A stretch of DNA of 64,000 bases from Botryllus schlosseri (taxonomy: Eukaryota). Each line of letters begins with the position of its first letter. Within the stretch, counting starts at the first letter, position 1. The stretch lies in the NCBI GenBank assembly GCA_051294905.1, contig CM119372.1, positions 39,248,001 through 39,312,000 of the forward strand. The letters run 5' to 3'. The notes beneath the pieces were generated by a model, which saw only the letters and a program-made list of their open reading frames with translations, searched no databases and had not been told where the DNA came from. Both the position numbers and the translations under genes were made by a program. Of the stretch, positions 8,237-61,342 are shown piece by piece.

Positions 8237-9873
8237 ATGGTAACCTTAGAATATTGTCTAATCGTCCATTATTCCTGAAGTTACGATTTGCTTTTTCACG
8301 AAGTAGATTAAGTGGAACGCACACCTTATCTATGTTATAGTTGTCGTGGTGATGAATTTAACCCTGATCACGGCGATTAAGATTAGATTCGCCTTGCTTC
8401 GACGGAAAATGAAAAGGCTGGAACTTACAAAGAACAACAATTTTCGAGACGAAGAAGGCGTTGTGTCAACTCAGTCTGATTACGGCATCCTTTGTAATCG
8501 AATATGCACCCAAGTTCATCTACTAACAGGGAATCACGATCTTCGAGACGAATAGAAACAAGAGTTGTGCCAACTCTGATTGCGGTATCCTTTGTAAACT
8601 GATATGTATACCCAAGGTTGTCTATTGCATTTTGAGTTTAGTTGGTTTTAAAAGTCATCGTTACCTTAATGCAATAATAATCTTAATCTTATATTTGCTA
8701 TCGCATGGATTACTGAATTTAACAGTCTATCAGTTCGATCATATGCAATCTCAGCTCTGAGGAATTGCGATCATCGATGAGGTATGTACTCCTGTACATA
8801 TTCTGCATGTGCTCAAAATGTTGTAGGCTAAGTCTTGAGTACCGAAAAAGGACGAAGCTGCGAGTGACATTGGAGGACAATTTGATGACACTGCCGTCTG
8901 AATTGGCGATGAAATAACGCATAAACTCTGTACATAACTAATTTTCACATCCATCATCCATTTTCAAATTACTGAAGTACTTTTCCTCTACTTGCAGTAC
9001 TTACTCAAGCAAATCCATTTTCCGTTACTGCTAGTTCCACCTCCTCATCTTGTGTGACTTATTTTTGGCCATTTACTGTTTGTCAAGTATAAGTATTACT
9101 TACTTTCAATAGAAGGGAGAGAGAGAGGAAGGGAGACCAAGACGCAGAAATTCCGAGTCCAGAATTTTCACTATGCTTCACGCGAAATATATACGGAGTG
9201 ATGAATATATTACCACGGAAGCATCGGACAATACCGGCTGCCTGGTTTATTTATGCAGTTTCGGGCCCCATATAGTCGCACATATGTAGTTAGATTCGTA
9301 ACGGTGCATAGAGCTCTGAGACATGGTTGGAATTATACGATATATCATATTTCAGTCACATTCCTCATCGGGTTAAGCGGTAATGTAGATTGTAGTATTC
9401 CTTACAACTTTTCCGCATAGTCCATCATCGTCTTATTAGCTATACTGGCTTGGTAATACGCTATATCGCAACATTGTCTGAGCGGGGTTGAATTCTGCGT
9501 CGCTAAAGTTCTACTTCTACTACTCGAGTAGCCTTCCTGATTAATTTGTCCAATTCTGTTGACTACCTGAAGACTTCTGTTATATTCCATCCTTTCATTT
9601 CAACCTTGTTCGTGTGTACAACAGTGTTGGGATCAAGTCACTACCTTCGAGTCACGGGTCATCTCGAGTCGTTGCACATTTTGATTCGAGTCAAGTCAAG
9701 TCAAGTCATGTCGAGTCACGAGTCAAGTCACAATTCAAGTCAAATTGAATTCTCGACGTCTCAGGGACGATTCAAGGTCATTACATTTTGCTAGCTGCGA
9801 GAAAGACGGAATAATTTGCAATTTATCTTGCATCAAATAACGAATATAAAGTTTAATGTGCATGCATGAAGAT

Positions 9874-21297: not shown

Positions 21298-22322
21298 ATA
21301 AGTAATGATTCGAATAAATTCGTATGTGCATTGTTGGGGTACGTCCAAGTATCATTTGGAAACATATTCCATCGTGACTAGATGAAAGGCATACTACCGC
21401 CAGAACCGCTCTTCCTCGTCATCTGATCCGCGCAAGGGGTATCTTGAAAAAGCCTAGAAGTGTGCCGTGCTTCAAGTCGGCAGATAGGAAATAATATCAA
21501 ATAGAATATTGGCCTGCTGTAAATGGCCATTGTAGTTATCAAACACCGCGATTATCACAAACAACAGAAACAACAACAACAACAACAGATTACGGCCACT
21601 AGGTGTTCGATTGTGATCCCCGTGTTCGGCGCCGTGTTTCAGCAAGTTGCATTATTGACTTCAATGAAGTTTCGTTTGGTTTGCTTTGCTTATTCCAGAA
21701 TAATTACATTCCGGGATCGACTATCAGCCCTAACAGCTCCATCACCGGAGACGCTCATTGTTTATTGTGATGTGCTTGGAAAGGATTCTTAATCGGGTTT
21801 CATTGATATTAGGATAATCTTCCCCGACATGGCCCTCCGGCGCTCCAAATTCACAACATCCTTTACTCGGAATCCCCGCTTTACTAGAAAGGTTGCGCAT
21901 TTGAGTCGTACAGCATTTGGACATTGTGCATTTCACCAAGGGATGGCTGGTTTACAGACGGTCTAATCAGCGGATTTAACGTAAGAGCGTAAGTGAAATG
22001 ATCCACATATAGTGGCTCTTATTTCCAACTATTTCCGATGCAGTATCATTTTAGACTGTTCAGATCCTTCACAGTTCCTATTACGCAATGATTCTGGCTC
22101 TAGATGTGCATCATATGAATGTATATAACGGTGGATTGAACTGGGAAAGACGTGGTGACCGTCTCTAGAGATATTTACCAAGAGATTCCGGAATACCTAT
22201 TAGGTGGACATTTTGATGTGACCGTCAAATCCTATAGAGCCAACCGCGCATGGTTGAAAGTTAGAACACGATATTCTAGTGAGGATCGCAATGCTCATTA
22301 CTACCGTGTCTTTGCTCTAGCA

Positions 22323-23455
22323 CAGGGGTGGGCAAACTACGGCCCGCAACCCTATTTTGTGCGGCCCGTGAAACCCCCTAAAACGCCAAAAATATTACTA
22401 ACATGCTTACTTAAAATAAAATTGCTGTACTTGCTTAAACTTTTTCTTAATATATTTCAACATGATAATGATAAATTATATTCTTACCGTAGTACTTATT
22501 TATTTCATTGATGGCGCGATAACCCGGCCCTGAGGTCCACGCATTTTGAAAGGCATCAATTGCTAAACATCACAGAAAGTGAAGCGTAGATGACTTAAAT
22601 CGGACCACGACTGTGATTTTAGAGTGGAAACACGAGCAAGTTTATTGCTTTTCGTGCTGTACTTGGAATAACCGATCCACGAGTATGTTACATAGATTCG
22701 TTCTTTGCAGGACCGTAACTGCTGCACCCCATACCCACCAATTAGAGGGTCGATCTCGAAGGGGACCTAACATTATTTCGTGAATTAACATAAATTATCG
22801 AGTATTTTATTGAAAATTTATGCAACTTCTTCAAATTTCTTGTTGCCTATTTCTTGATTATTGTGTACCTATCTACCAAGAAAAAAACACGTGATTTATA
22901 GAATGGGGATTTCGGCGTCGGCATTACCACGCCACGACTGACCAAGTCTTATCAAGTTTTATGTCACGTATTATGCAACTCCGAGAGGTCAGAACGAACG
23001 GCAGCGAGAAAACCTTGGCCCGAACTTTATTTTTATATTATGGAAGCGTATCTAAAAGTAACATAGTTATGATGCTGTCCGCATAGTGTGTCTTGGAGTT
23101 AAATCAAAAGCACAATCAGCAAATCTATGAAGAGATCGCTGCTCACAGACTCAAATTTACATCCAGTTTTAAGAACGTGGACAACGACTTTCGTCCCTAA
23201 TTAGACGATAAGGACGACGAGCTTATAGATTTTCGTCAATGTTTCTGGCGCGTGTACGATATCATCAAATCAATGCATTTTTGAAATATACAAATACATA
23301 ATATTATTTCCATTTTGTCAGTCGTTACATAATATCATACATAATCAAAAGATAATATTGAATTTTAGCTTGGTATTCCAATTTTATATAGTGCGGCCCG
23401 CGAGTGGATTCAAATGCTCATGCGGCCCGCGAGCTAAAAAGTTTACCCACCCCTG
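22323..23455. mobile_element. Charlie/Buster-like non-autonomous hAT
   Basis: TIR CAGGGGTGGGCAAACT...AGTTTACCCACCCCTG; TSD CTCTAGCA; GGCCCG subterminal motifs. Confidence 0.9.
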
Positions 23456-26116: not shown

Positions 26117-26354
26117 TAGCTGGTAATATAAACACTTCTCTGCGTTTCGGATTACAAGGACTTTGCCTGAAGTAATTTCCGGAATGAGGATTAAAAATTA
26201 TGTCACGTCTGCGCTACCTAAAAGTCAAGAATTAAACGAATCACGTGGAGACAGAATACCATCCTTTTGATTGAACACGTTTAATCGTTTCACAGGTCGT
26301 GATATGTGTGAGAATTTCACTCTGTGATGCTATAGATATTGAATTTAGTTCAAG

Positions 26355-27383
26355 ATGAACACAACGGCAGATGGAACTTATCTCATCACAACCTCGGATT
26401 CCTCACGTAAACAAAAGTTAACCGAGAAGGAACTTCTCATAATATGGATAACTTTCGGAATGATTTGGAGTTTTGCTTTGATCGCCAATCTATTTTCGGT
26501 TGTAGCACTCGCTAAAACAAAACAAACTCCTTTTCATGCCATCATCATCGGTTTATGCTGTTCCGATATTATCTCAGCCATCGCCTCACCTTTCATTGTG
26601 GGACAAATTATGTACTCTAATGCCAAGAAAGAATACCCTTGGAATGTTGTAATCTGCAAAGCTGCAATTCCGATGGGTTCGATAACCAGTGCTGTTACGA
26701 TCCAGCTCGTGTTCACATTGTCTATTTGGCGATTGCATGCTATACGCTGGCCTCACAAAGCTGTCGGATTTATGACAGTACGTAGGGCGAAACAGATTGT
26801 GATATCAACGTGGATAATTTCGACGTTTATGCTCCTGCCTCTCGCTGCATACTATTTGGATGTTGTTCCTTCGACTGTCGACCATGGAAAAAAAATATGC
26901 TTTACCTCGGAGCAGACTATTTGGATCGGATATATCTACCATTTCGTAGATGCCGTGGTGATGAATCTGATTCCAATAACTTGGATCTTGATACTGTGTA
27001 TTGTGACCGGATTTTACGTACTGCGACGGAAAACGAAAAGACAGGATCTTACGGGCGATCATAAGCTTCGGAGAGAAGAAAAGCAGGCTTTGTCCCAACT
27101 ATCACTGATTATCGCCTCCTTTCTGGTTGGCTACCTCCCAAAGTTTTTTCTCGTCGTTTCGTATATTGTAGGTCACAATAGTCGCGTCACCACCATCTCC
27201 TATTTGGTATCACGCGGACTTTTAAATACTACAGAGTGCATCAATCCAATCATTTATAGCATCAGCTCAGAGGACATACGACATTCGATGAAGCATATTT
27301 GTCAGCGCGTATCCTGCATTTTCCGACACCACCCAGAGGAAAAACGCAGTGGAGATCGCGAAAAAACTGAATGCGATGTTTGA
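26355..27383 (+). CDS. Orphan class-A (rhodopsin-like) GPCR, 342 aa, no intron in the CDS
   Basis: Seven hydrophobic segments; TM1 AN, TM2 LCCSD, ECL1 YPW..C, TM3 LSIWRL, TM4 W, ECL2 Cys, TM5 P, TM6 FLVGYLP, TM7 NPIIY; N-terminal NTT glycosylation sequon. Confidence 0.93.
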   Translation: MNTTADGTYLITTSDSSRKQKLTEKELLIIWITFGMIWSFALIANLFSVVALAKTKQTPFHAIIIGLCCSDIISAIASPFIVGQIMYSNAKKEYPWNVVICKAAIPMGSITSAVTIQLVFTLSIWRLHAIRWPHKAVGFMTVRRAKQIVISTWIISTFMLLPLAAYYLDVVPSTVDHGKKICFTSEQTIWIGYIYHFVDAVVMNLIPITWILILCIVTGFYVLRRKTKRQDLTGDHKLRREEKQALSQLSLIIASFLVGYLPKFFLVVSYIVGHNSRVTTISYLVSRGLLNTTECINPIIYSISSEDIRHSMKHICQRVSCIFRHHPEEKRSGDREKTECDV

Positions 27384-35052: not shown

Positions 35053-36338
35053 CAGAGGTGGTCAAAGTAGTCAAGAAAGCTACTCAAGTAGAAGTAGAAG
35101 TAGTGACGAAAAAATCTACTCAAGTACGAATAGAAGTACTTCTTCCATAATCAACCTAAAACTACTTGAAGTAGAAGTAGAATTTACTGACTTGAAATCT
35201 ACTCAAGTAAATAAGTAGTTGTGAAAACGATCGTAATTCGTTCGCATGGATTGTCAAAAGGTGCAAATTGAGCTATGCGAAAGGTGCCGAGCTTGATTCA
35301 TTTTGATGCATACCAGGAGGTATCCAATGTTCGACATCATAAGCATTCGTCCGCATCATGGAATGAAAATGATAGTATTGATATGGAAATGCGATTCTAA
35401 TCCTCTGTTTACTCGAACAGCACGTTTTAAAAAGTATCATACTATGGCGCACTCCCCCATATTATAAAGCCCGTAGTTTAGTCGAAGAGCAATATGGAGT
35501 TGCATAGGATACGGTGTAAACACTTTGCGCGATTAGTAAGCATTAATAAAAATATGGTGGATCGTAAAAATGCCTTAATGTGTAGCTTTATTTCCGGAAA
35601 TTAAAGTCATGACGGCACTTGCTTTTATACTTCAACATGTATGTTATCCAAACAAAATAACTGATATTAATTAGAACTCAAAGTATATGAAACTGGGAAT
35701 TGAAAGTGAAATATAAATACTACTTCTAAAGCGGAAAATGTATTTCATGTCTTCAGTCAGAAAGTTTCAAAGATGGTATGCTAAAACAGCTCTAAAACTA
35801 AAAAAAAGTCAGAGTCCGCTTTCCTAGATTTGGACACGCCATGGACTGCTAGATTACGATATAAGTAAATGCTAGATTGCGAAACATCAGTTTCAAACGT
35901 TATGATGAGCCATATATACTGTGATGAAATATTTCATATTGGCGAAGGGCGACAATGCGGTGTGAACGGAACCACGTCAACCCGCTACCTAAATCATATT
36001 CACCGATACTTTCGTGAAATCATACAGGTTACTCCGTATCCACAGAGCGCGAAGCGCGACGAAAATTCTGGGCTTTACTCAACTTTTATGAAAATTAAAT
36101 GTTGATACTCCGTGAAAACAGCCCCGAAATTCCTCAGGGTATCTTCCTGATTAGAGGATTAAACTACTTCTACTTGACAAACTGAAAATAGCGAAAAGTA
36201 AGTAAGTAGATCACAAAATATTACGAAGTAGAAGTAGAAGTAGCGAATATCAGATCTACTTGAGTAAGTACCAGAAGTAGAGGAAAACTACTTGAGTACT
36301 TCGAAAAAGTAGAAGTACTTCGTTAGTGACCACCTCTG
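35053..36338 (+). mobile_element. hAT-type element with AGTAGA repeats
   Basis: TIR CAGAGGTGGTCA...TGACCACCTCTG; TSD GTTTCTGC; full-length similarity to 43490-44766. Confidence 0.92.
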
Positions 36339-37958
36339 GTTTCTGCTGTGAGTAAGAAATTTTGTCATGGCACTGAAAACACGTTCTGTCAAATATGAGT
36401 CGGAAACGATGACGACGAAAAAGTCAACCCGACTCCAGTGGGAGTATTTCTATTTGATTCAATTCTGTACCCAGAACGATTGATTGGGGACATTGAACAT
36501 AGGGTTAAACTTAAAATTGTTCTACACCACAATATAATCAGCCTCTCAATCATTTCATACTCGAAAACTTGACCGAATCGATTGATTATCCGGTAAAGAA
36601 TTTCTAATTAGAATATATATCGAAATCAAGTCACCATATTCTCGTGCAGTTTTCTGATATTATTGATTTACGTTTTTCATTCAAAATCGGGTATTCGAGC
36701 TGAACCGGTAGCTCATGCAAGCTTGGGAATTGAAACAGTTCACGTGTCGCAAAATTTGGATCAAATTTCACCGTCTGATCACCGAATCCGGACAGTGCCA
36801 TTTTAACCATTATCAGGTTTCATCATTACTAAGAACGGATGTATATTCTACTCATAAATTTCTGAAAATATACCCGTCAAGTAGAAGCGAGATCGTTCCT
36901 CGCAACCGGAACACCGTGTCGAAGGCCACGGTCGCAGAACTGTGGAAAATCCACGATCGTTTGAAAAAGAGATGATAAAGAAAGTTTCTTTTAAAAAGTA
37001 ACTTTCCCGGTTCAGCTGATTAAATAGGCGACCCATAATTGCCATGGGTGAATCGGTATTGCCTTTTAGCTGCTTTATTCATGAACCGTTTCAATACAAC
37101 GCAGCTCTTGATTTCTAAAGCTACCCCGCCCCATTTGCTCCTAGCGCCACCTACCGCCCAATATTACAGCCAGCGCCCCCCCCCTAATCGCCTATTTCAT
37201 GGTCAGCGCCTTTTCCACACCCGCGACCGCCCCAGGGGCGCTGGCGCCCACTACGGAAACCACTGCTCCATACTGACCCTTATGACAGTTATTGTAGTGA
37301 TGGCACGTGGGTAATTTCAAATCGCGCGCCTCGCTGTCTCTTCGAGCAGACTATCTTCCGGTTAGTTGGAGGTGTCTGTAATGAAATTTCTGTAGCAGTT
37401 GTTATATCGTGGATAATCAGGAGTTTTAAAATTGCAACCACGCTAAATCTGTACACGTTTTAGGTTAATATGGATTCACGCTCACCCGGTTGGTACGGTG
37501 ATCTGGCGCGTCACGCACGTTGTCGCACGATTCAATTCGCGTATTCACTATACTCGCTATTGTAGGTGACATCCGTGCGATAGTCGTGCGTCGGCCAACA
37601 TCGTATATGGCCAGTTGGCCACGCAGTCCCGGCAGTAGGAGGCCATTTATTGCATGTGCCATTACCATCCATTCCATCTTACAATGATTTATTCACCATA
37701 TTGGTAGATGATCTATATGAAAAGCAAAGATATGGATATTATCGAAGTACTTTCAATTGTTTGTGCTATTCCTGTAGTACCCACCTATACAGTATTTAGG
37801 CAACACCTTACCTTTTTACTTTGAAAGTACTTTTTGTTCAAGGTTGCGTCGTTTTATGAATGAATTTATCGTGATAATGGATTGATTGAACCCCCGTATC
37901 ACTGTAACTCAATATATTTCCAAACATCATACCCATTTGTAGTGTCACTGTCCAATTA

Positions 37959-43489: not shown

Positions 43490-44766
43490 CAGAGGTGGTC
43501 AAAGTAGTCAAGAAAGCTACTCAAGTAGAAGTAGAAGTAGCGACGAAAAAATCTACTCTAGTACGAGTAGAAGTACTTCTTCCATCAGTCACCTGAAACT
43601 ACTTGAAGTAGAAGTAGAATTGACCGACTTTAAATCTACTCAAGTAAGTAAGTAGTAGTGAAAACGATCCTGATTCGTTCACGTGGATTGTCAAAAGGTG
43701 CAAATTGAACTATGCGAAAAGTGCCGAGCTCGATTCATATTGATGCATACCAGGAGGTATCCAATTTTCGATAGCATAGGCATTCGTCCGCATCATGGGA
43801 TGAAAATGATACTATTGATATGGAAATGCGATACTAATCCGCTGTTTTCTCGAAGAGCACGTTTTAGAAAATATTGTGGTATGGCGCCCACCCCCATATT
43901 ATAAGGCCCGTAGTTTAGTCGAAGATTAATACGGAGAATTTGTATAGGATACGGTGTAAACACTTTGCGCGATAAGTTAACGTTATAAAAAATATGGTGG
44001 ACCGTAAAATGCCATGTTGTGTAGCTTTATTTCCGGAAATTAGAGGCATTACTACACTTGCTTTTATACTTCAACATGTATGTTATACAGACAAAAGAAC
44101 TGATAATCATTACAACTCAAAGTATATGATACTGGGAATTGAAAGTGGAATATAAATACTACTTCTAAAAGCGGAACATGTATTTCATGTCTTTAGTCCA
44201 GTAAGTTTCAAAGGCTGTATGCTAAAACAGCTCCGAAACTAAAAAAAGTCAGAGTCCACTTTTCCAGATTAGGACGCGCCATGGACATGCTAGATTACGA
44301 TATGATAAGTAAATGGTAGATTGCGAAACATCAGTCCAAACGTTGTGATGAGCCATATATATAGTGTGTTGAAATAATTCATGTGGGCGAAGGGCGACAA
44401 TGTGGTGTGAACGGAACCTAAATTATATTCACCGATACTTTCGTGAAATCACAGTGGCCACTCCGTATCGGATGCGCGCGAAGCGCGACGAAAATTCTGG
44501 GCTTTACTCAATTTTTATGAAAATTATATGTTAATTCTCCGTGAAAACAAACCCGAAATTCCTTAGACTATCTTCCTGATTGGAGGATTGAACTACTTCT
44601 ACTTGACAAACTGAAAATAGCGAAAAGTAAGTAAGTAGATAACAAAATATTACGAAGTAGAAGTAGAAGTAGAGAAATCAAATCTACTTGAGTAAGTACC
44701 AGAAGTAGATGCAAACTACTTGAGTACTTTTTAAAAGTAGAAGTACTTCGTTACTGACCACCTCTG
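43490..44766 (+). mobile_element. hAT-type element with AGTAGA repeats, second copy
   Basis: Same TIR as 35053-36338; TSD GAAGACAG/GAAGGCAG. Confidence 0.92.
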
Positions 44767-45002
44767 GAAGGCAGATATTGCGTCTGTATTCTAACTAAAA
44801 GCGAAGAGTAGACGTGATTAAGTTAGAGAATGCTTGGCCTATTTATACTATACGTATAATTGCTGATCCCAGCAGTTTACCGATAAAAATATTTGCCAAT
44901 CCCTGGCATCAATGGAACTAAATGTCGTGACTATTGATGTTCTTTATTGTTAGATAACTGTATTGGTAGACTTGCTGTGGGCGGTATGAGTATGACGTAG
45001 GT

Positions 45003-49071: not shown

Positions 49072-49951
49072 CAGGAGCGGTCAACTTCTTCGGTTAGCGG
49101 GCCTATGGGAAAATGAAGTACTTGACCGGCCGGCTAATACAGCATCAATACACTAACTACGTATTTATCCATCTATACAAGGAATAAATCGTATTTAATG
49201 TAAACTAAAAGTTACAAGCATTGAGATCGAAAACATAATTTAATGAATATGTTAATCTAATGTACTTCAATATCTTTTGAAGTCAATCAGACATTTGCGA
49301 TCGATCAAAGCTGTCAACAAGTTCTTTGGACTCTGGCTACATGCCAGCCATCCGATAGTCGACAAGCATGTCACATTCAAGTCGAAATACAAGCAATCAC
49401 TAGTAAATAAATACTAGTCCATCCTCAAGATTACCGGACCACGACCTGAGCTATCGACCTCGCCGTCCATGACACGCCACCTCATTTTTGCCGCTTGTCG
49501 CTTTTTTCTATACTATTTTCTTTACTTTTCATTCAGTAAGCATGCCTCCTGTTTACCTCGCCTAGGCCAAGGTGGGTGTCAGATCCCAAAGACTACTCCA
49601 AGTCGCTTCGACACCTTCTTATCTTTTCATTGTATCGCATTTTGTGGTGAAGTGATAAAAAACCCTAATAAACCAATGATGATAATGATGTCGGAAATAG
49701 ATTGTAGAAACCCTTAGTAAAGACTGCATTTGAATATCAGTTAGATTGCAACGCAGTCTTGTCTTGGTAATCATTGTCAAAAATGTATGCAGAGCCGAAT
49801 AAAAAAAAAAAAAAAATCATAACCATCTTTTTCAGGTTGGAAAACTTGGATTCGTCTGTTATTACTTTCACATTAGAATTTCACTTTCAGGGTAGTAACC
49901 CTCTGAGGGCCGCTCAGAATCCCGGCGCAGGCCGTATGTTTCCTGCCCCTG
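49072..49951. mobile_element. Decayed Charlie/Buster-like element just upstream of the second GPCR pseudogene
   Basis: CAGGAGCGG...CTGCCCCTG; TSD TCCTATAA/TCCTATAG; GGGCC subterminal motifs. Confidence 0.65.
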
Positions 49952-50078
49952 TCCTATAGAATATTATCCTTTTGGTGAAATACTTCGAGTTCAATCTTTT
50001 CGCAGGTCCCATTACGTTTCAAGGATTCATCGTGTGATGAGCGAAAAATTGAATTGAATGTAACTCAGCGGATCCATA

Positions 50079-51125
50079 ATAAACGTAACCACAGATGGTG
50101 CTGATCCAGCCACAACGGTGTCATATGAAACCTCGGATTCTACTCTTCCACAAAGTTTGAGCGAGAAGGAATTGATCATGATCTGGAACGTATTCGGGAT
50201 AATTTGGGGTTTTGCTTTGATCGCCAATCTAATTTCGGTTGTAGCATTAAGTAGAACGAAACAAACGCTCCTCACTGTTATCATAATTGGCTTGTGCTGT
50301 TCCGATATTTTGTCAGCCCTCGCCTCACCGTTCATTGTTGGACGAATCGCGTACTCTGGCGCTAAGAAAGAATACCCGTGGAATGCCGTGATCGGCAAGA
50401 CAGCGATTTCGATGGGTTCAGTAACAGGTGCAGTTCCAATTCAGCTTGTACTTGCATTGTCAATTTGGAGATTTCATGTTATTCGCCGGTCTGTAATATC
50501 CATCGGAAGTATGACATTAGGGAGGGAAAAAAAATTGTGGTATTTGCCTGGATGATTTTGACAGTTATGTTCATGCCTCTTGGTGCATACTTCCTGGATA
50601 CTGTTCATTCTTCTTCTGAACCTGGAAAGCCAATATGCTTTACCACGAAGCATGGCCATTTGGATTGCTAATGTGTACAATTTCGCAGATCTCGTGATGA
50701 TGAATTTTATTCCGATAATTTTAATCTTTATGTTGTGTGTTGCGATCGGATTTGCGGCGCTTCGACAGAAAATGAAAAGACAGGAAATCACGGGAGACAA
50801 TCAGCTTCGTGTACAAGAGAAGCAGGCGTTGTTCCAATTATCTCTGATTGTCGTCTTTTTCCTGATCGGCTACCTTCCAAAGACCTTTCACATCATGTCG
50901 TATATTGTTGATTACAAAAATCAACGCGTCCTGACCATCTCTTATTTATGATCCCGTTACCTTTCGAATATCACAGAGTCTCTCGACCTGGTGGTATACA
51001 ACCTCACTTCGAAAAATATACGATCTTCTACAAAGGATATTGTTCGTCGCGCATCCTGTATTTGCAGACACCGCCCACAGGACAAACGTAATGGAGATAG
51101 TGTGGAAATGCAATGCAATGTGTGA
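50079..51125 (+). pseudogene. Class-A GPCR pseudogene, paralogue of 26355-27383
   Basis: Colinear over the full length; start codon position reads ATA; -1 frameshift in an A run at ~50530 and +1 at ~50654; TGA in TM7 (50949-50951); NPIIY replaced by DLVVY; ends QCNV* versus ECDV*. Confidence 0.92.
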
Positions 51126-51361
51126 CTATCGATCTGATTTGGTATAGCGCTGCTGTTTGGCTCATTTTCCTTTCATGAACTATATAATGGATATGCGTTA
51201 TTTAATTGATTAGGAAAGAAAATCATATATTTGGCGAATTTCCGGCATAACGTATAGTGCTGATGCGGTAAACAACAAATTTCGATGCAAAATATTGCTT
51301 CCAAACCTATTCCGATTATTAAAAACGCGTCTAATACGGCAATTCTTGTAAAGATTTATAC

Positions 51362-51713
51362 CAGTGGTTCCCAACGTGCGCGATATCGTCCCCCGGGGGA
51401 CGATTTTGAGAAGCATACAAGGGGGCGAAAATACCAATGGAGGCGATTGGAAAGGCGGGTAATTCTGTATATGGCGCGAAAGTTGACTAACCAAAAAGGT
51501 CAATTGAACGGAAAGTAGACACAGAAACCGGTTTTCCGAGCACCTACTCGCAAAAATTAGTTTTCTTTTTTAGTCAATTCACCAGTGATCAGAGTTTAGT
51601 GAATAAATTTCCCGGTAATATGCCCCGTTTTACGGATCCGTAAATATGGAGGGCGAACATCTGTGTCGAGCTTGATAAGGGGGCGATGGGTCGAAAAAGG
51701 TTTGAAACCATTG
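51362..51713. mobile_element. Decayed Charlie-like MITE
   Basis: CAGTGGTTCCCAAC...GTTTGAAACCATTG; GGGGGCGA motifs; TSD poor. Confidence 0.6.
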
Positions 51714-54433
51714 ATCTATTTCCATGGGTGAAGCTGGTAAAGCTGTCATGCTGCATCTCAAGTACAGGGCAAAATTTTTCACGTGCAACAGAACACACTT
51801 CTCTCGGGTGATATATCTCTAAGAATGAGAATTTCCATGTATTATTCAGATATTTACAGTTAATAAAGGATAATTTTCCACTTCCTTCCCTCATAAAAAC
51901 TTTACTTGAAATTACTTAGCAATAAAATGCAGACAAAATACGAAGCAATACCTTAAATCCTGATATTTTATGGTTTGAAACTATCGAATTTAGAAGTTTA
52001 GACTTTAGGATATAGCTCCATAAGTATCGGCGTACGTCACTCATTTATACCTACTCGAATATATGTGAAAGAACTTGGTACCTGAAAATGCTGCTGGCCT
52101 GTTTTCCAACCGAAATACTTTGAAACTGTAATAGATGTCCCTATTTTTTCATGCATTTACAGTGTAATATTTTGTAGTATATATAAGGCATAGTTAAAAG
52201 TGTTGACATTGTTGCATACAAACAATATATGCTTTTCAAATATCTAGGAAATGGTCACGGTGTCTGGTCAATTTCTTGGTTTCGTGTTTCTAATTTCTGA
52301 TCAATTTTCCGTACAGGTGGTATGTAATAAAATTCAACACTATTGCACGATCATTACATATTCATAAGTCATTTGGTCGGTTTCTGTGTACGGAAAGGAC
52401 AATGTTTATCGTTCGGGCAGATCGGTTGCAGTGGGCCATGTAGGGACGCGTTTCCAACCCGATACCACACGATGTAGTCCTAAAATATTTGCTTTACGAG
52501 TGCATTTATACAACGCAATAGTCAATGGCAGATAAAACAGGACATGCGCGTCCATGGCCTCTAACGTATGTAAATGTGGCACAATTGAACTTAGGGTGTG
52601 CAATAAAATTTATTGATTGTTGACTAGCATAGACTTATCACTCGGTTATCGCTTATCACTACAGCCAAACTTCTGAAGTCAAGCAAACTTAGAATTACAA
52701 CATTCATGCAGTTATAACACTATTTCTAGTTGCGGAATAGAATCTATGACCAGAATCTGCTCAACAAATTACGAAACACTTGCTTGGTTAGTAGTTATCG
52801 CTGAACTACGGTGGCAAACCAGGCGAATGGATACGCGCGTAATATTTCAATGGTTTATTTATCTATTCGGAGGAAAGCTGAGGTCGTGAAATCTACCGCT
52901 GATTCCATTTGGTTTCGAATTGCGATTGAAAAATCAATAGCCATTATTGATAGGCTTTGTTTACACGGTATTCTAGGGTGATTCCAAGCCGTCGATGATA
53001 TGCTACGCGCGCGAAGCATTGACACATGCTTTTATTTGAACTAACATAGCTCGCATCATTCCTGTAACGATTCGTTTCACTTCGTAGAGAGCGCGTCATT
53101 GCTTGGGGTTTCGAAAATTCCTTTTCTTAGAGCCGTCTAAAACATGACATTAGGGTTTTGACAGGGCACCATGCGGCATACTGTTTTATAGCGCAAGCTA
53201 TAGATAGAAGGGTACAATCATCGTCAAGTAGTTGGAACTTTGGCTGATGAGTAATTTCAGTATGAGAAAAATGTATCCCAGGGTCAGTAATTTCGCTGTA
53301 GTATTTCTTTCCGTTATTATTTCTTTCAAAATACTATACTTTGTTATCGCTCCCATGACGCAAATTCATAAACTTCGATATAGTAATGGCGACTCGATAG
53401 TTTGACTGTGATGTATATTACATTATAGAAAAGGTTGAATTCGGGACCTACATAGGTGGATGTAGAAATTGGTTGGTCGAGTTCGGTCGCATGGTGCTCT
53501 ATACTGTATATAATAGGGTCTCTATATGTCCTCTTTTAGGAGTATTTGTCCTCCTTTTTCAGGGAATCGAAAATGTCCTCCGTGGACGCCTAAATGTCCT
53601 CGTTTTTGAAAATTCGACCTCCTTTATAGGTTTTACAGCCAGGGTAATCGACAGGCTGAACTAAAAACGCCATAAATGACGCGTTTCCTTTAATGCGGAC
53701 CCCCGAGCGGGTTATTCGGGTGCGGGACTTGTAACACGATATCATTTTTTTGTCAACACCACAGCAGCATCGTTAAAAAGCGGCTACTTCGGGAGTCGAA
53801 ACAGAATGATGACCTTTTCGTAGTGAATAGAAGAAGTTTTACAGTACAAATTTTAGCATTCAGCAGTTTTCTAATCCCGTAATCTGACTTTTATGATTTC
53901 CAAAAACTGCCTTCCTTCCCGGATTCCAAAGGTGAGATGGCCCGTGATGTAATTCTCAAAATTAGTTATAATATCAAAAAAATGCATGACCCAGGTAATT
54001 TATTATGAACTTGCATGACCAACCGAAAATTTAATGAGCCTGACCCCGAACTTTCGGATGTTCATGACGAAAATAACAGTTCCGACGCACTAACGTAGCC
54101 GGGAGCCATCCGCATTTTTGGTAAATCTTCGTATATGGCACAAAGTAGAATATATCGTGACAGATTTTTTTTAACTTCATATCGTTCATAGCCGATCGCG
54201 CGATTCATTGTAACTCGACTTCTTGGTTTTAGTATTGGTGCACCCTCCTGAAAATTAGGAATTAAAAAAACGCCCGAAATACGGAATTGCGTCTATCAAT
54301 ATTCGCAATTACCAGAGAACGTGTCGTCCAACATTCGACTTTGCGTCTACGCTCGCAGAAAGATTGTCGGCGATGAAAACTTTGCACAAAATGATAGATT
54401 CATGTTCACTGAAATCTTTGATGTTGATATGTC

Positions 54434-54867
54434 TAGGCTTTCATTTAAAACAAAAGTAAATTTAATACAAACATGTATAAAACAAGGCTCTTGTTTAAAA
54501 CATGTTTTTAGTGTTTTTTTAAATTCATGACGTCACAAATGATCAATGGTGACGCCATAGTGGATTGACATTGACAATTGAAAAAATAGGGTAAATATCG
54601 CTCGTTTGACGAAATATTTGTACTATTGCTGTTATACCGACTATTTTGCGGGCGCCAACCATCCCATATCGACATACGTCGGCACTATCGGATTGAAATT
54701 GTCCGTAAGCTCATACAACATGTTGCTTGAAAAGTATTTACACAATAAGGGCGTAAATTTACAGCATGAAAAAACACAATTTTTTTAAGGCCTTTGTTTA
54801 ATACACTGTTAAAAACATGTTTTAAACTAAGTGTTTTAAAACACCGTTTGTTTTAAATGCAGCCCTA
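54434..54867 (+). mobile_element. TTTAAAAC-family MITE
   Basis: TAGGCTTTCATTTAAAAC...GTTTTAAATGCAGCCCTA; TSD GATATGTC. Confidence 0.88.
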
Positions 54868-55566
54868 GATATGTCCAAACACCGATTAACCATGTCCTGG
54901 CTGAATGAGCCCAGCAGTATACAGAGGAGACCTACAACATATGCAACTAACATTATTATTGACCGAATTCATTAATTACCTTTAAAAAAATCGCGCCTCT
55001 CGCGGCTAGTACAAGTCCACAGAGCCCGCTCTTATCGGACGACTAAAAACAGACATCAACATCAAAGTGGCCCGCGCAATGTTTCGTAAATCTCATGTGT
55101 ACCTTTGGCCGAAAAGGCTGGTCACCCCTGGTATAGGGCGTGTAGGTCATAAATTTTTGGTACCAAATCATGCACATCATCTTTATGCGTCTTCTAGGAA
55201 CGGTTCATGAAAACAGAACCCTCTTCACACCTCGGATACATATATGTCCATATATGAATCAGTGTATATTTATTGTAGCCTATTCACCCATTGAAATAAC
55301 CATGAGGAGCAAAATTCTGTACCTAGAAGTAGGCCAACTGTTTAATTTAAATGATTTGCACCCAATGCTAAAAGGTAGAAAAAGCGGTGAATTATTTGGT
55401 TTTCGTTTACTATGCAGAACTGCTGGCGTACCCTATATTTGTGTTGGGGCCTTGAAGTTATCACACTGGTCCACGAATCGTTTAATTTATTTATTGTCAT
55501 TTCAGCCAGCATATTCATATTAATAGTCCGTGATTCGAATTTGGAACCAGGCTCCTGACAAGTGAA

Positions 55567-56802
55567 ATGTCTGGGAGTGGAGTCACAGATTTGGAATATG
55601 ATACCACCACCCCTAATTCTTCACCACCAGATTCTGATAATTGGTTTTACGTGGGGATTGGTATTCTTTCTGGGTCAATGGTAACTCTGCTCGTGTTGCT
55701 CGCAATTTACTGCTTTTGCTTCAGCAAGCGATATGATGCAATCGGCGAGACTGCTGAGATGACATGCCAGAAAAATCGCAAGGTAAATGACGATGCGGAG
55801 CGGGTATCTTCTGTGTCACCGATTGTAACCGATGCCAATCCAAAAGCCAAGAATGAGTATGGTTACGCTCCTAAACAGAAACATCGGGCTGGTACGGTGC
55901 TGGCAGTAATCGACGAAACTTGCGAGACTACAGATTCCGATCAGTTTAATGAAAGGTCGATAGACTCTGTTGTGACTGTAAAGCAATCCCATTATAAAAG
56001 TAGTCCCAAAGCTGGGGTACAAGTCACCGATGAGTTACGCACAAATTTTGACGCAGCATCAATAGTGCAAAACGCGAATGAGTCAACTATCGTCGATGAA
56101 ACAACAGAAACAGAGACGGGAGAAACCACACCAATAACCGAAAAAATCGAACCGGAATCGACATCAGAAAGAGTGATTAAGCAAGTAATAAAGGAACTCT
56201 ACCCGACCGTTGATGCGCTGAAAAATGAGGATGATTCACCAGTGGTCACAAACCCAGCGTTCGACTTACAAGCAACTGCTAACGACAGTGTCAGTATCAG
56301 CAGCTTTCAGGCGCCCGTAAACGATATCGCAACAGATGTGAATGACACGGACGCGTGCGAGACGCGTGAATTTAGCGATATTGACTTTGTCACCGCTGAT
56401 GAATCATCGGAAATAGACTTAGTTGATACTGATGATCTCGAAAGCGGTCAAAAGGCGTCAGTGTTCCGTTCTCTTTCTGAGGTTGTTGAAACAGGAGAGG
56501 ATACAGACGAAGACGAGAGAGTCTCGCGCGCAGAATATAGTTTGCTACAGAATGACGATGATAAAGTGGATACAGCCGCCAATGAATCGCTTGATATCGC
56601 TTCCATAGATTCGGCAGACAATAACGAACGAAGCGAAACAGGTGCAATCAAATCCGTGGATACGGAGAGGAAATTAGCAGGAAGCGAGTTTGAAAGCAAC
56701 AGAAAAGAGTCCACCCGATCAATCGGGTCGGTGATCGACTTGACGCAGGACTCGGGTTACCTAAATGTGCTACCACCCCCTCCCGAAAGCATATATGAAT
56801 AA
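55567..56802 (+). CDS. Single-pass membrane protein with a long acidic, probably disordered tail and tyrosine motifs (transmembrane-adaptor-like)
   Basis: 411-aa ORF in stop-rich DNA; TM at aa ~27-52 ending CFCF, then SKR; D/E/S/T-rich tail; candidate splice acceptor TTTCAG ending at 55505 and in-frame upstream TGA at 55531; AATAAA overlaps the stop. Confidence 0.8.
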   Translation: MSGSGVTDLEYDTTTPNSSPPDSDNWFYVGIGILSGSMVTLLVLLAIYCFCFSKRYDAIGETAEMTCQKNRKVNDDAERVSSVSPIVTDANPKAKNEYGYAPKQKHRAGTVLAVIDETCETTDSDQFNERSIDSVVTVKQSHYKSSPKAGVQVTDELRTNFDAASIVQNANESTIVDETTETETGETTPITEKIEPESTSERVIKQVIKELYPTVDALKNEDDSPVVTNPAFDLQATANDSVSISSFQAPVNDIATDVNDTDACETREFSDIDFVTADESSEIDLVDTDDLESGQKASVFRSLSEVVETGEDTDEDERVSRAEYSLLQNDDDKVDTAANESLDIASIDSADNNERSETGAIKSVDTERKLAGSEFESNRKESTRSIGSVIDLTQDSGYLNVLPPPPESIYE

Positions 56803-57352
56803 ATGTATATGTCAACCGAGTCGAGCTATTCAATTTTAATAGAAACGTTACCACATATCCATCTAAATGAGTGCTCTTTAACGTTTTTTGAACTTTAAAA
56901 CTTGATTTCAACAAAATTTTGCCCGCATGTATGTAAATTAAGTGCTATAGCATATAATGTTAGAATTGGACTACTTATCTTCATCTCTGGATGGAACTGT
57001 CTGTCCTTACGAAATACTTCACCTAAAAACTGACGAAGTTTTACTTGAAAAACTTTATCTTAACGAAATCTAGGCCTTTGAAGAATTCCAGTAGTTACAT
57101 CACGCATTATGTTACAAATAATTAAAATGTGTTGTATTACAAGGTTAGATAGGCCTACTTTCCAACATTTTCTGGTAGAAAGTGTCTGTTTTTACCAGGT
57201 GGATTGCCAAGAATGGAGAAAGAATATTCAACAGCAGCAGTTCTTGGCTGGCAACACTGAAACGCACCATGTTGCTTCATTCGGAGTATGTTGTCAACAT
57301 CACAATTTTTCACATAAGAACCAATGTCCACGCAGTCTTGCTTCAGTTAGGA

Positions 57353-59884
57353 CAGTGGTTCCCAACCTGTGGTACGCGTACCACTAGAGGTACGCGAAGA
57401 TCTTCCAGGTGGTACGCGAGTAGATTATGTTTATTTGTTTTTTCGACCGAAGGTAGTTATTAGCTCAGGTGGGATTGAGTTGGAATTTTCTGAAGTTTTT
57501 TGACTAGTGGTGAAAAACAATTCCATGCATCCTATCAACCGTGACTGATAATGCCTAGTTTAATAGAATTTGTTATTACTAGCGCGATTTTTTTTACATG
57601 TCAAAATAAGTTGAAATTTTGCCAAAATTGTTTCCTGAGTCAAAATTTTTTTTACCCCGACATATCGTTTGTATCGTATATTTAGCACTATCAGTGAACT
57701 TATCATTTGAAATTTTACAGCTTGTGACCTACTTTATAGGCCTACCGTTCTAGACGGCCGATTGTCAAAACATCGTGAATCATAAACGGTCAAACGTAAC
57801 AAATAGTTTGACAATTGACATGGGGCTATGGCTAACGTGCCGCAATATCCTAACTGAAGCAAGACTGCTTGGGCATTGCATGGTTCCTATATCAAGAAGC
57901 GCATGATGATAAATTGTGATGAAGACCAAAAAAATATTTGGCGGACCGGTGAATCATCAAAAATATTAATCAACCAAAAATTTCAAGAATTAAACCGTTT
58001 TCTGTCTGTATGATACAAGAGGGTGACGTTTTGTGAGTTTTGTTCGTAATTAAATATGTTCATGATAGTTTTCATGTGATTTTGCGGTAGTTAGTCTGGT
58101 AAGTCGAGGTCGAACTGTTTGGCCCAGATAAACGTGCTAGCGCCGAGAGTCGATTACAGTATTTTGCACCGAAGTCCGTGAATTACCACCTGAGGCATTA
58201 CGCCAATTCCAATAATATTATTCTCTTCGACAATATACAGAGAAAAAGCGTTTTGGAGTCGGAACAAGCACCTTGTCGTGCTACCTTGGGTATTTTCCAC
58301 AACCACCACTACTACTGCTATACGTTGCACGAAAACACCTGGCAACTGCGCTACGGGGTCACCAACAAAATGAATGAATCGGAAACGAATGATCGCGCAA
58401 ACTGTTAAACGAGTCAGCTTGTACTTGTCGCTCGCATGTCGTCCCCAGAGGCGGCTTGAACTTCAAGTTAATTCATGGGTGGGAAATTATTTTTCTAGGC
58501 GTGTGAAAAGAGAAGCACAAAATAGGTTTGTGGGCCGTGCCAAAAGTTCAAACTATATTCCGTGACGTATTTTTTATTTCTAAACAGAAAACAGTGAATT
58601 ACATTGTTAACACAAGTTGCTAGCTAAGTGGATGTGTTAAATTTAGACTATGAGAAAGGTAGGGTTAATTTACCAAATATTGTATTGATTCATTCAGTGA
58701 CAATATTCAAAACAGTGCGAAACATGAAACACCTAAATCACATTTCCCGATATCCTTTTTCTATGGAGACGTCAAAATCTATTTGGGGTATTACAAATCT
58801 GGTCTTGGTTCCGAGCTGTGCTGTGGCATTTAGCTTCGTTGTTTGAGAGTTTCGCTGGCTAATGCTCTGGAATCCGCGCTCAGTCGGCCTCAGCCAGCCG
58901 ACAAGTGTTTGTATTTAACTGCGTTTTTATCATAATGCTGAATCAAAATATATCTACAAACACGGCGATCTGCTCACCACAAAAAAATTACGGGTTTTCC
59001 TCTCACTCAAGTAAACAAATATTTAGTGATCCAAATCTTCTTTAAATGTCTGCCCTCAGCATCTACCTTTATTTTTGATCTTGTTATACGGAATATGGAT
59101 TGAAAATGCATGGCATGACAATTTAAACCACAGACCGGGTAATTTGTAATGTAACAATGGCAAAAACGTTTTCAACTATCAGGAAACCAATACTTTTCAC
59201 TTTAATTGTTACGATATACTTTGCTATGATTGCGGTATTTTGAATCCAGATTATACGAATTATACGTAGGCTGCGTAATTACTGTAGTGTACACAGATGA
59301 ACAAGCAGGCTTAAAAGTAAACGCATTTCCGGTTCATTCCATGCAACCCTTGGTTTTAATTCACAAATTAATATTCAAAAGTAGGTTTTATGTTCTAAAT
59401 TCAAGGCTACGTTTCGTGGGCCCGTCAAAATCGCGTTGCAGGCCGTACTATGCTCGCAGGTCTGAATTTGATCGGACATGCGTCCAGGCCTAATGGTAGG
59501 CTACCTCACGAAGTTTTGAATATGTTTAAATTTGATGTCTCATTTATTTCATCAATTCGCAAGCCTTCAACATTTTGCATCTTGGAATTAGAGTATCAAA
59601 TGATAAAATATCTGGCGGACCGGCAGAAAAGTCAAAATTCAGTTTTTTTAGGTCAAAAAATGTTAAAATTTTGATGTTTTCGGCCAAAATCCTCCATTTT
59701 GTATTTAAAAAAATATTCCCCTATATGTTTACACCCCACATAGGTCAAATACGTGAATATGACGTCATAAATGATGGAATCCGTTTATAACCGCCTACGG
59801 CGCGCTTAACTTATGTAGGTGGTACACGAGCACTGCACAAAACCTCGAAGTGGTACGTGGGTGAAAAAAGGTTGGGAACCACTG
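57353..59884 (+). mobile_element. Charlie/Buster-like non-autonomous hAT with GGTACG motifs
   Basis: TIR CAGTGGTTCCCAACCT...AGGTTGGGAACCACTG; TSD AGTTAGGA. Confidence 0.9.
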
Positions 59885-60279
59885 AGTTAGGATAATGCGG
59901 TACTTTGAGCATAACACCATGTCAACCTATTTGTTTCATTTGAATGTTTATTATTCACAATGAGCAGACAATGAACCGTCTACAACGGAAGGCCTATAAA
60001 GTACGCTACAAGCTATAATATGTCAAATGATAAGTTCACCGACGATGAAAAATCCACGATACATACGAAATGCACGTTGCAAAAAAGTTTTACCTTTGCA
60101 AACAATTTTGACATTTTTTGACCTAACGCTGCAATTTTGACTTTTTTGACATGTCAAAAAGAATTCGCTCTAGTCATCAGTTTCTAAATGCTACATTTTT
60201 CTATTCAATATTCCGAATATGCCAAACACCTTATCTTTCCGCGATTGGACGCGCAATTATCTGCTCCCTATTTCTAAGT

Positions 60280-61089
60280 AAGTAGTTGTCAACCGGGATC
60301 CGCGAAGTAATTTCAGGGGGTCCGCGAAACCTCTAAATTTGCAGAATGTGTGAAAATCGACTTCCTATTTTTTTAAGTATACAAATCCCGGAGCAGTTTC
60401 GCTTCATAACTGCTAAAACTAAAGGACTTATGCAAACATAATGGCCGTTTGAGATGAGATATTCTACTGTCCAAACTCATTTCAATCGCCAAATTGCCAA
60501 TAGCCTACTGATACAAACATATTGCAGTTTAAATATGTTTTGTTTGGGTTTCGGAATAAATTCGCTTGTAAAAAAAATCATTTTTACCGCGTTATACAAC
60601 ACTGCTTTTCCAAAATAACTTCAAGATGAGCTGCTTTATAGAAATGACAAGGCTGGACGCTATATTATTAAAAGGATGATGATATTGGTGCCATGTATGT
60701 TGCGATCAGACCTTAACATGTCGTTGGAAGCGTTACGCGTTATTATCAAACTCGCCACCACCGCATTTATTTGTGGAAATTAATGGATTTTCAGCTCTCG
60801 TACATGTCAAATCAATGGCGCAGATTTTCGAGGCACGGCAGTGTACTACAAGAAATGAAGTCACATAATTCGCTTTGAAGTACTAAATGTCTTCCTAATT
60901 TCGATATAAATAGTATGATGTTAATTTCAAGAAAGGTCATTTTGTTGCTGTTTATCACTAGCCTTCAGTTAATATTTGCACAAGACGGGTGGCGATTGCA
61001 CGGTAATAGAGCTAAATTTGAACTAGGACTTGGGGGATTCGGGACACTCCTAAGGGGGTCCGCGAGAACGAAAAGGTTGAGAGCGACTG
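60280..61089. mobile_element. Decayed Charlie-like element with GGGGTCCGCG motifs
   Basis: AGTAGTTGTCAACC...GGTTGAGAGCGACTG; imperfect TSD TTCTAAGT/CTCTAAAT. Confidence 0.6.
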
Positions 61090-61342
61090 CTCTAAATTAT
61101 TATTTTTGCCTCCGTAAGTGCCGTAAGCCATGTTCTCATGCTCACAATTATTCGTGATCAGAGTTTTCCTGACAGACATTTTGATTGTAACGCGAAATTG
61201 GACAGTGTGATTTTGCGTATGCCTTAAAATTGGAATTCATTTCTTCATTTTTCCAAAGGCTTTACGAACATTGATTTGAAAACGCAATTTATCTCCAATA
61301 TAATCAGCGAAGAATTGCAGCGACGCAAGCTATTCTCGAAAC

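Follow-up and report, generated by a model that had tools for sequence, protein, structure and literature searches.

The transmembrane adaptor PAG is described as exposing 16 amino acids on the outside and carrying a 397-residue acidic tail with proline-rich stretches, and all but one of its tyrosine motifs are reported as conserved between human and mouse (PMC2213442). Nine tyrosines of LAT are likewise reported as kept in human, mouse and rat, and LAX is presented as being without a juxtamembrane palmitoylation motif (PMC3342071). In the ampullae of Botryllus, homologues of Src, Syk, SHP-1, GADS and Grb2 are reported to be expressed; nearly all homologues of the ITAM/ITIM pathway are described as present, LAT and SLP-76 as not found in ascidian genomes (PMC12582321, PMC12065747). 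With LAT reportedly absent there, a LAT-like role of the protein studied here would matter. Moreover, an adaptor with a short ectodomain would escape homology searches, so that any candidate of such shape deserves a test.

We analysed a 64-kb stretch of Botryllus schlosseri DNA, called the window hereafter. It encodes a 411-residue protein, P0001, for which the original prediction had proposed a LAT/PAG-like adaptor architecture with an ITIM-consensus motif. Like PAG1/Cbp, P0001 has a short outer piece, one helix and juxtamembrane cysteines (PMC2213442, PMC3342071, PMC3492796), followed by an acidic tail in the range of 360–400 residues, in which Ser/Thr sites are numerous and one stretch is rich in proline. 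Unlike PAG1/Cbp, described with ten tail tyrosines, motifs of the YEEI/YSSV type and a CxxC, it has eight tail tyrosines (three of them kept in its relative P0002), no such motif, and a CxC; the two proteins have no sequence or profile similarity. With LAT, NTAL/LAT2, LAX and LIME it has in common the topology and a tail without catalytic domain (PMC3342071). These proteins are described with several conserved Grb2-type YxN motifs, whereas P0001 has a single, unconserved YxN and no homology to them. A weak likeness to the LIME1 and SCIMP clusters is seen at the level of features. P0001 thus shows the short outer piece without signal peptide, the single helix and the non-catalytic tail of TRAP-type proteins; it is not classed as one of them because conserved tyrosine motifs and homology both failed.

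Three other kinds of protein invite comparison. Botryllus FcoRs, like P0001, are ascidian single-pass proteins with YxxI/L/V motifs in the tail (PMC12582321, PMC12065747). Unlike P0001, they are described as type I proteins with a signal peptide, Ig/Sushi domains and canonical ITIM, hemITAM or core-2 motifs, none of which P0001 has. The NUMB PTB ligands Sanpodo and LNX2 carry, as P0001 does, an NPAF motif of the phosphorylation-independent kind (PMC9856935, PMC7373230), and Sanpodo is described as a membrane cargo internalised through NPAF (PMC9856935). Unlike P0001, Sanpodo is four-pass and LNX2 a soluble ligase; P0001 has no homology to either and is a candidate NUMB ligand only. Finally, poxvirus A36R and herpesvirus UL132 were the top named clusters in a feature search (0.86–0.89), below its reliability marks and with no alignment; like P0001, they have an N-terminal anchor and a long motif-bearing tail. 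A36R and UL132 have sorting and actin roles. No sign of a viral origin of P0001 was seen, and none of 136 candidates from viral contigs was related to P0001.

Architecture of P0001 and its single relative

The coding sequence and its membrane-proximal parts are as follows.

55567..56802, + strand: P0001 coding sequence, 411 amino acids, uninterrupted, from translation; aligned with P0002 over its whole length, Met1 included
55567..55641, + strand: residues 1–25, acidic and S/T-rich, predicted extracellular (N-out), net charge -5; 14/25 identical in P0002
55642..55731, + strand: predicted transmembrane helix 26–52, then K54-R55, from hydropathy and AlphaFold; 21/27 of the helix identical in P0002

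The frame, 411 codons and a stop, is the longest in the window, where 3e-7 open frames of its length are expected by chance. Its best Kyte-Doolittle 19-mer scores 2.38 at residue 29, values do not exceed 0.42 after residue 60, and the N-terminus has no hydrophobic signal peptide. The helix contains GxxxG and C49-F-C51; K54-R55 and a 357-residue acidic tail (22% D+E, 20% S+T) follow. C49 and C51, by motif reading, are candidate palmitoylation sites. Translation and hydropathy thus bear out the architecture originally proposed, namely a short N-terminal end, no signal peptide, a transmembrane helix, CFC, KR and an acidic tail. P0002 has it in common: the helix, GxxxG, both cysteines and KR are kept, and the charge asymmetry across the helix is -5/KR in P0001 and -3/KR in P0002. 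The juxtamembrane cysteines, likened to those of LAT and PAG, are present and kept, but a pattern search finds them as CxC in both proteins and not as the CxxC of LAT, NTAL and PAG.

No catalytic domain was found in the tail by Pfam, PDB sequence search, hydropathy or AlphaFold. In the AlphaFold model, built from a two-row alignment, 365 of the 411 residues have a pLDDT below 50 (mean 40), and the membrane helix is the sole part above 70. The tail is likely disordered according to this model, although a low pLDDT from a two-row alignment is no proof by itself.

P0002, 417 residues long and derived from a Logan contig, was the single match to P0001 (E 2e-153) among 1.84 billion representatives (50% representatives), and forms a cluster of one. 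The proteins align end to end from a shared Met1, with 277 of 411 residues identical (68%) and six gaps that all leave the frame intact. Because of this end-to-end alignment with frame-keeping gaps, we infer that the P0001 frame is a protein-coding gene under selection. P0002 may be an orthologue or a paralogue. All statements on conservation compare these two sequences, P0002 being read as protein only. Within the tail, 241 of 357 residues are identical (67.5%). Conservation there is highest for acidic residues and for Gly, Leu, Arg, Ser and Pro, and the most variable part has 24 of 55 residues identical. Nine identical runs of 7–13 residues are shared by the two proteins; the clumping of identity along the tail is not significant (p 0.17–0.18).

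A profile of the two sequences, searched against proteins of near or shorter length, gave no further relative. Pfam returned no family for P0001 (E<=1), nor for P0002 and two pieces (E<=10), and the PDB sequence search no match to P0001. No second copy of P0001 lies within the window, and none of 132 candidates from a metagenome scan was related to it. One of 115 candidates from a second metagenome scan, L001, was rejected as a seed-driven chance match (23/70 identical) to a CxxCH-rich protein. No described ascidian transmembrane adaptor was found in the literature, where an entry in a supplementary annotation table could still exist. The suggestion that the protein is undescribed is borne out, in that the databases and literature searched held no described relative. 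The gene looks undescribed, lineage-restricted and ordinary in kind.

Tyrosine motifs of the tail

Two of the tyrosine motifs of P0001 are best followed by position.

56536..56547, + strand: YSLL; Tyr kept in P0002, with Gln at +3
56752..56769, + strand: SGYLNV, matching a relaxed ITIM and YxN; substitution plus a one-residue gap in P0002

All motifs named in the original prediction could be located, YDAI at Y56, YPTV at Y212, YSLL at Y324, SGYLNV at Y398 and SIYE at Y410, but the tail holds eight tyrosines (56, 98, 100, 143, 212, 324, 398 and 410) and not only these five. YSLL, said to stand after DEDE, is present, but DEDE ends seven residues earlier, so that no hemITAM is formed. The reading of SxYxxV at Y398 as an ITIM holds for the relaxed pattern only and not for the canonical I/L/VxYxxI/L/V used for Botryllus FcoRs. 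Pattern searches of P0001 for dileucine, ITAM, ITSM, YxxM, hemITAM, FcoR core-2 and YEEI/YSSV motifs gave no match.

Three of the eight tail tyrosines (38%) are kept in P0002: Y98, Y212 and Y324, each preceded by Glu. Y100 and Y143 are lost, and Y56 and Y410 are replaced by His. At 68% overall identity, one of the five named motifs is intact, YPxV at Y212 with its hydrophobic residue at +3. Keeping one of five has a binomial probability of 5e-4 if each motif is retained at 90%, and of 0.19 at 50%. The P0002 tail holds three tyrosines in all and neither an ITIM nor a YxN. Leaving aside a single Met, no residue class in the tail is less conserved than Tyr; the Tyr deficit against 67.5% is not significant (p 0.08–0.12), and there is no excess. 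Between these two sequences, tyrosine sites may have been either gained or lost. Overall, the proposal of a multi-tyrosine ITIM/Grb2 adaptor is not supported by the comparison, the ITIM/YxN tyrosine, YDAI and SIYE all being gone in P0002. The tyrosine motifs are thus not kept in this relative, a possible orthologue.

How often such motifs arise by chance was estimated by shuffling the tail 20,000 times: 35% of the shuffled tails had one or more relaxed ITIMs, and 36% one or more YxN. P0001 has four YxxPhi motifs, and at least four were seen in 6.4% of 20,000 shuffles (p 0.064), a mild excess. Judged from the two sequences, the headline SGYLNV "ITIM" is probably a chance or lineage-specific variant, and P0001 illustrates how easily ITIM matches arise by chance.

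P0001 might nevertheless be a LAT/PAG-like phosphotyrosine adaptor whose tail would be phosphorylated by Src/Syk-type kinases and assemble SH2 proteins, YLN binding Grb2/GADS and the ITIM-like site recruiting either a phosphatase or Csk; P0002 would then be a diverged paralogue or have lost tyrosine sites. Its size and make-up do resemble PAG, and the feature search gave the clusters of LIME1, SCIMP and poxvirus A36R, as leads only (0.83–0.89, recognition 1346). The SH2 and kinase partners reported from the ampullae, next to a LAT homologue not found (PMC12582321, PMC12065747), would suit such a protein, as would the four YxxPhi motifs and the three kept tyrosines with their preceding Glu. The codons of Y398 and Y410 are also unchanged in a second sample, X1, in which a contig over 56616–56797 has 0 differences. 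We nonetheless consider this reading unlikely. Four of the five named motifs are not intact in P0002, and its matches to ITIM and YxN do not exceed chance. Where NTAL and LAX are described with five YxN (PMC3342071), P0001 has one; it has none of YEEI/YSSV, hemITAM and CxxC, and its RNA is near zero in two bulk samples. P0001 is accordingly a weak candidate for a LAT equivalent, of the right shape but with tyrosines not conserved in the single comparison.

Candidate docking motifs and possible function

Several motifs of the tail that would act without phosphotyrosine are kept between the two proteins.

56164..56211, + strand: amphipathic helix 200–212, then YPxV; 12/16 identical, helix predicted, pLDDT 47–56
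56245..56262, + strand: VxNPAF, candidate phosphorylation-independent PTB (Numb-type) docking motif, kept in P0002
56701..56745, + strand: RKES (PKA-type) and VIDLT (SUMO-interacting-motif-like), VIDLT lying inside an 11-residue invariant block
56770..56799, + strand: LPPPP (Ena/VASP EVH1-type), kept; terminal SIYE, Tyr replaced by His in P0002

In both proteins, no part of the tail has a higher hydrophobic moment than helix 200–212 (0.79; shuffle p 0.04). The adjoining YPxV is of the YxxPhi type, a sorting signal for AP complexes, and RKxS is the pattern of PKA sites. In both proteins NPx[Y/F] lies in a region predicted to be cytosolic and disordered; the fuller VxNPAF pattern, chosen after viewing the alignment, occurs in 0.8% of shuffled tails. 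The kept blocks are residues 227–234 (7/8), 387–397 (11/11) and 401–409 (9/9), the last including PPPP at residues 403–406. In LNX2 and Sanpodo, NPAF is reported to bind the NUMB PTB domain with no need of phosphorylation (PMC7373230, PMC9856935), and an ascidian Numb gene is described (PMC4282237). VIDLT is given as the core of the SUMO-binding peptide of PIAS2 (PMC9071424). LPPPP matches the Ena/VASP EVH1 motif, whose core is counted 4,994 times in the human proteome (PMC8789275). Since the docking motifs were selected with the alignment in view, and identity shows no significant clumping in the tail, they are candidates only.

As our best explanation, to which we give about even credence, P0001 would be a membrane-tethered scaffold or cargo, N-out (type III) and likely palmitoylated, working through phosphotyrosine-independent docking motifs. 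Helix 26–52 would serve as a reverse signal-anchor with the N-terminal end outside, and C49 and C51 would be acylated. By analogy with known ligands, NPAF could recruit a Numb-type PTB adaptor and YPxV the mu subunit of an AP complex; with both, we propose, P0001 would be internalised or sorted. LPPPP may tie the protein to Ena/VASP and cortical actin, and TRAP-type proteins are reported to be able to anchor the cytoskeleton as well (PMC3342071). Ser/Thr kinases, not tyrosine kinases, would tune the tail, and expression would likely be limited to a rare cell type or stage. A docking or sorting role is likelier than an immune adaptor because P0002 is without immune-type tyrosine signals. Several points stand against the scaffold reading: the "conserved blocks" may reflect no more than the general level of identity, the SUMO-type motif has no obvious role at the plasma membrane, EVH1-type and similar short motifs are common, and the RNA evidence is very thin. 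At the least, P0001 is an undescribed, lineage-restricted membrane protein with candidate docking motifs.

The same alignment could be read more simply, the tail being an acidic spacer, or a cation-binding or structural element, under loose constraint, or the whole a young drifting gene. The lack of significant clumping agrees with this, as do the residue classes that are kept best (acidic ones and Gly, Leu, Arg, Ser and Pro), the single relative and an RNA level close to background. The nine identical runs and a 411-codon frame intact in both copies, over which five X1 contigs show no frameshift, make it distinctly unlikely. We hold it to be highly doubtful that P0001 is a convergent, non-homologous stand-in for the LAT/PAG-type protein reported as lacking from ascidian ITAM/ITIM signalling; it would then be a palmitoylated scaffold whose tyrosine sites change fast from species to species while its Numb-, SUMO-like and Ena/VASP docking motifs stay in place.

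Gene structure, transcription and neighbouring GPCR copies

Signals around the P0001 frame were scored with a crude splice-acceptor score, given as percentiles of the AGs in the window.

55484..55505, + strand: candidate 3' splice acceptor, T-rich tract and CAG, 99.8th percentile of window AGs (crude score)
55531..55533, + strand: in-frame TGA between this acceptor and the ATG
56798..56803, + strand: AATAAA over the stop codon, candidate poly(A) signal

The acceptor ending at 55505 lies 61 nt from the ATG and, if used, would define a 5'-UTR intron or a trans-splice site. Because TGA 55531–55533 is in frame, acceptors at 55505, 55509 and 55526 cannot extend the N-terminus or add an ectodomain. 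A second candidate acceptor, AG 55629–55630, lies within the frame in phase 1 and reaches the 99.1st percentile, on the same crude score.

Reads of four of 24 runs (X12, X16, X9 and X1) were placed on 49900–58500, which was divided into 30 bins; 15 repeat-laden bins were dropped, leaving five over the gene and ten of unique flank. X12, bulk RNA of which about 6% was read, gave about five reads' worth in three of the five gene bins, in a single orientation, and covered none of the ten flank bins (Fisher p 0.02, with bins chosen by the analyst). No reads over the gene were found in X16, also bulk RNA. X9, which bears another organism label, is uninformative, with just 26 partial reads across 49900–58500 and none over the gene. 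X1 consists of contigs whose RNA status is a guess and which may be DNA; it covered five of five gene bins and one of ten flank bins at a depth of about 4. The corresponding p of 0.002 is to be read with bins that are not independent, and DNA with diverged flanks could look alike. X1 differs at 13 of 1,291 letters, without any gap inside the frame, and one of its contigs is unspliced across 55350–55753. Among the splice joints listed for the four runs, none lies at the 5' end of the P0001 gene. In sum, these few reads come from one of three RNA runs, with no joint at the 5' end among those listed. Transcription of the P0001 gene is weakly indicated, at a level near background. A lone X1 contig at 52513–52690 (depth 2.7) stands 2.9 kb before the ATG, in unique sequence that is otherwise without coverage; it may represent a 5' exon, pre-mRNA or DNA.

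These data also bear on the possibility that the frame, with membrane helix and tail, is the final exon of some larger type I receptor, the phase-1 acceptor at 55629–55630 joining it to ectodomain exons and codons 1–21 being intron. Phase 1 is usual before membrane exons. A branch-like word, CTAAT, stands just upstream of this high-scoring AG, and no read shows the true 5' end of the mRNA. However, P0002 has the same Met1 and, without a gap, shares 12 of the 21 residues encoded ahead of AG 55630, and the search of 1.84 billion representatives gave no longer relative. Pfam found no ectodomain among the 137 plus-strand ORFs of at least 42 aa in 27400–55500 (135 unmatched, two GPCR pieces). The AG at 55550 is weak (75.7th percentile, crude score), and the X1 contig across 55350–55753, maybe DNA, is unspliced. 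We regard a last exon as quite improbable.

Upstream of P0001 lie three same-strand copies of a single-exon rhodopsin-class (class A) GPCR, one intact and two broken.

26355-27383, + strand: intact GPCR, single exon, 342 aa; 7tm_1, E 8e-23
50079-51122, + strand: broken GPCR copy, 52% identical to the intact copy
4788-5181 and 8286-8637, + strand: third GPCR copy, with stops and frameshifts

The nearest solved relatives of the intact copy, distant ones, are somatostatin and opioid receptors (E about 1e-14), and the exact-sequence collection held no match to its protein. It has WRL where DRY is usual in class A GPCRs. The copy at 50079-51122 has a frame change near 50500–50560 and an in-frame stop near 50949, and no reads or contigs of the four runs fall on it. 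The third copy is apparently divided by about 3.1 kb of other sequence. The original prediction had placed P0001 next to a rapidly turning-over receptor cluster; the copies do turn over but are class A GPCRs, not immunoreceptors, and their link to P0001 is adjacency only. T-rich AGs stand at 26295, 50005 and 55505, about 60–75 nt before the coding starts of two GPCRs and P0001, which suggests, as far as sequence goes, that they share a layout in which a single coding exon follows a 5'-UTR intron or trans-splice site. That P0001 is an accessory or scaffold of these GPCRs, as a trafficking partner or a kinase anchor through helix 200–212, would suit the common strand, the similar gene layout and the conserved amphipathic helix and RKES site, but is very unlikely, as the nearest copy, 4.4 kb upstream of the P0001 frame, is broken, copy C has no GPCR reads in any run, and the AKAP-like pattern seen in the P0001 helix is absent from P0002 and arises by chance in 33% of shuffles.

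No tandem repeats occur within 51000–60000. A 92-codon frame at 60879-61157 (+ strand), with a signal-peptide-like start, a basic end with three Cys and no Pfam match, may be due to chance or derived from a repeat. At 22140-22511 (+ strand), the first half of a 123-codon frame without Pfam match resembles a coding exon. Finally, a 1.3-kb segment is duplicated within the window, its two copies at 35053-36339 and 43490-44767 being 88% identical.
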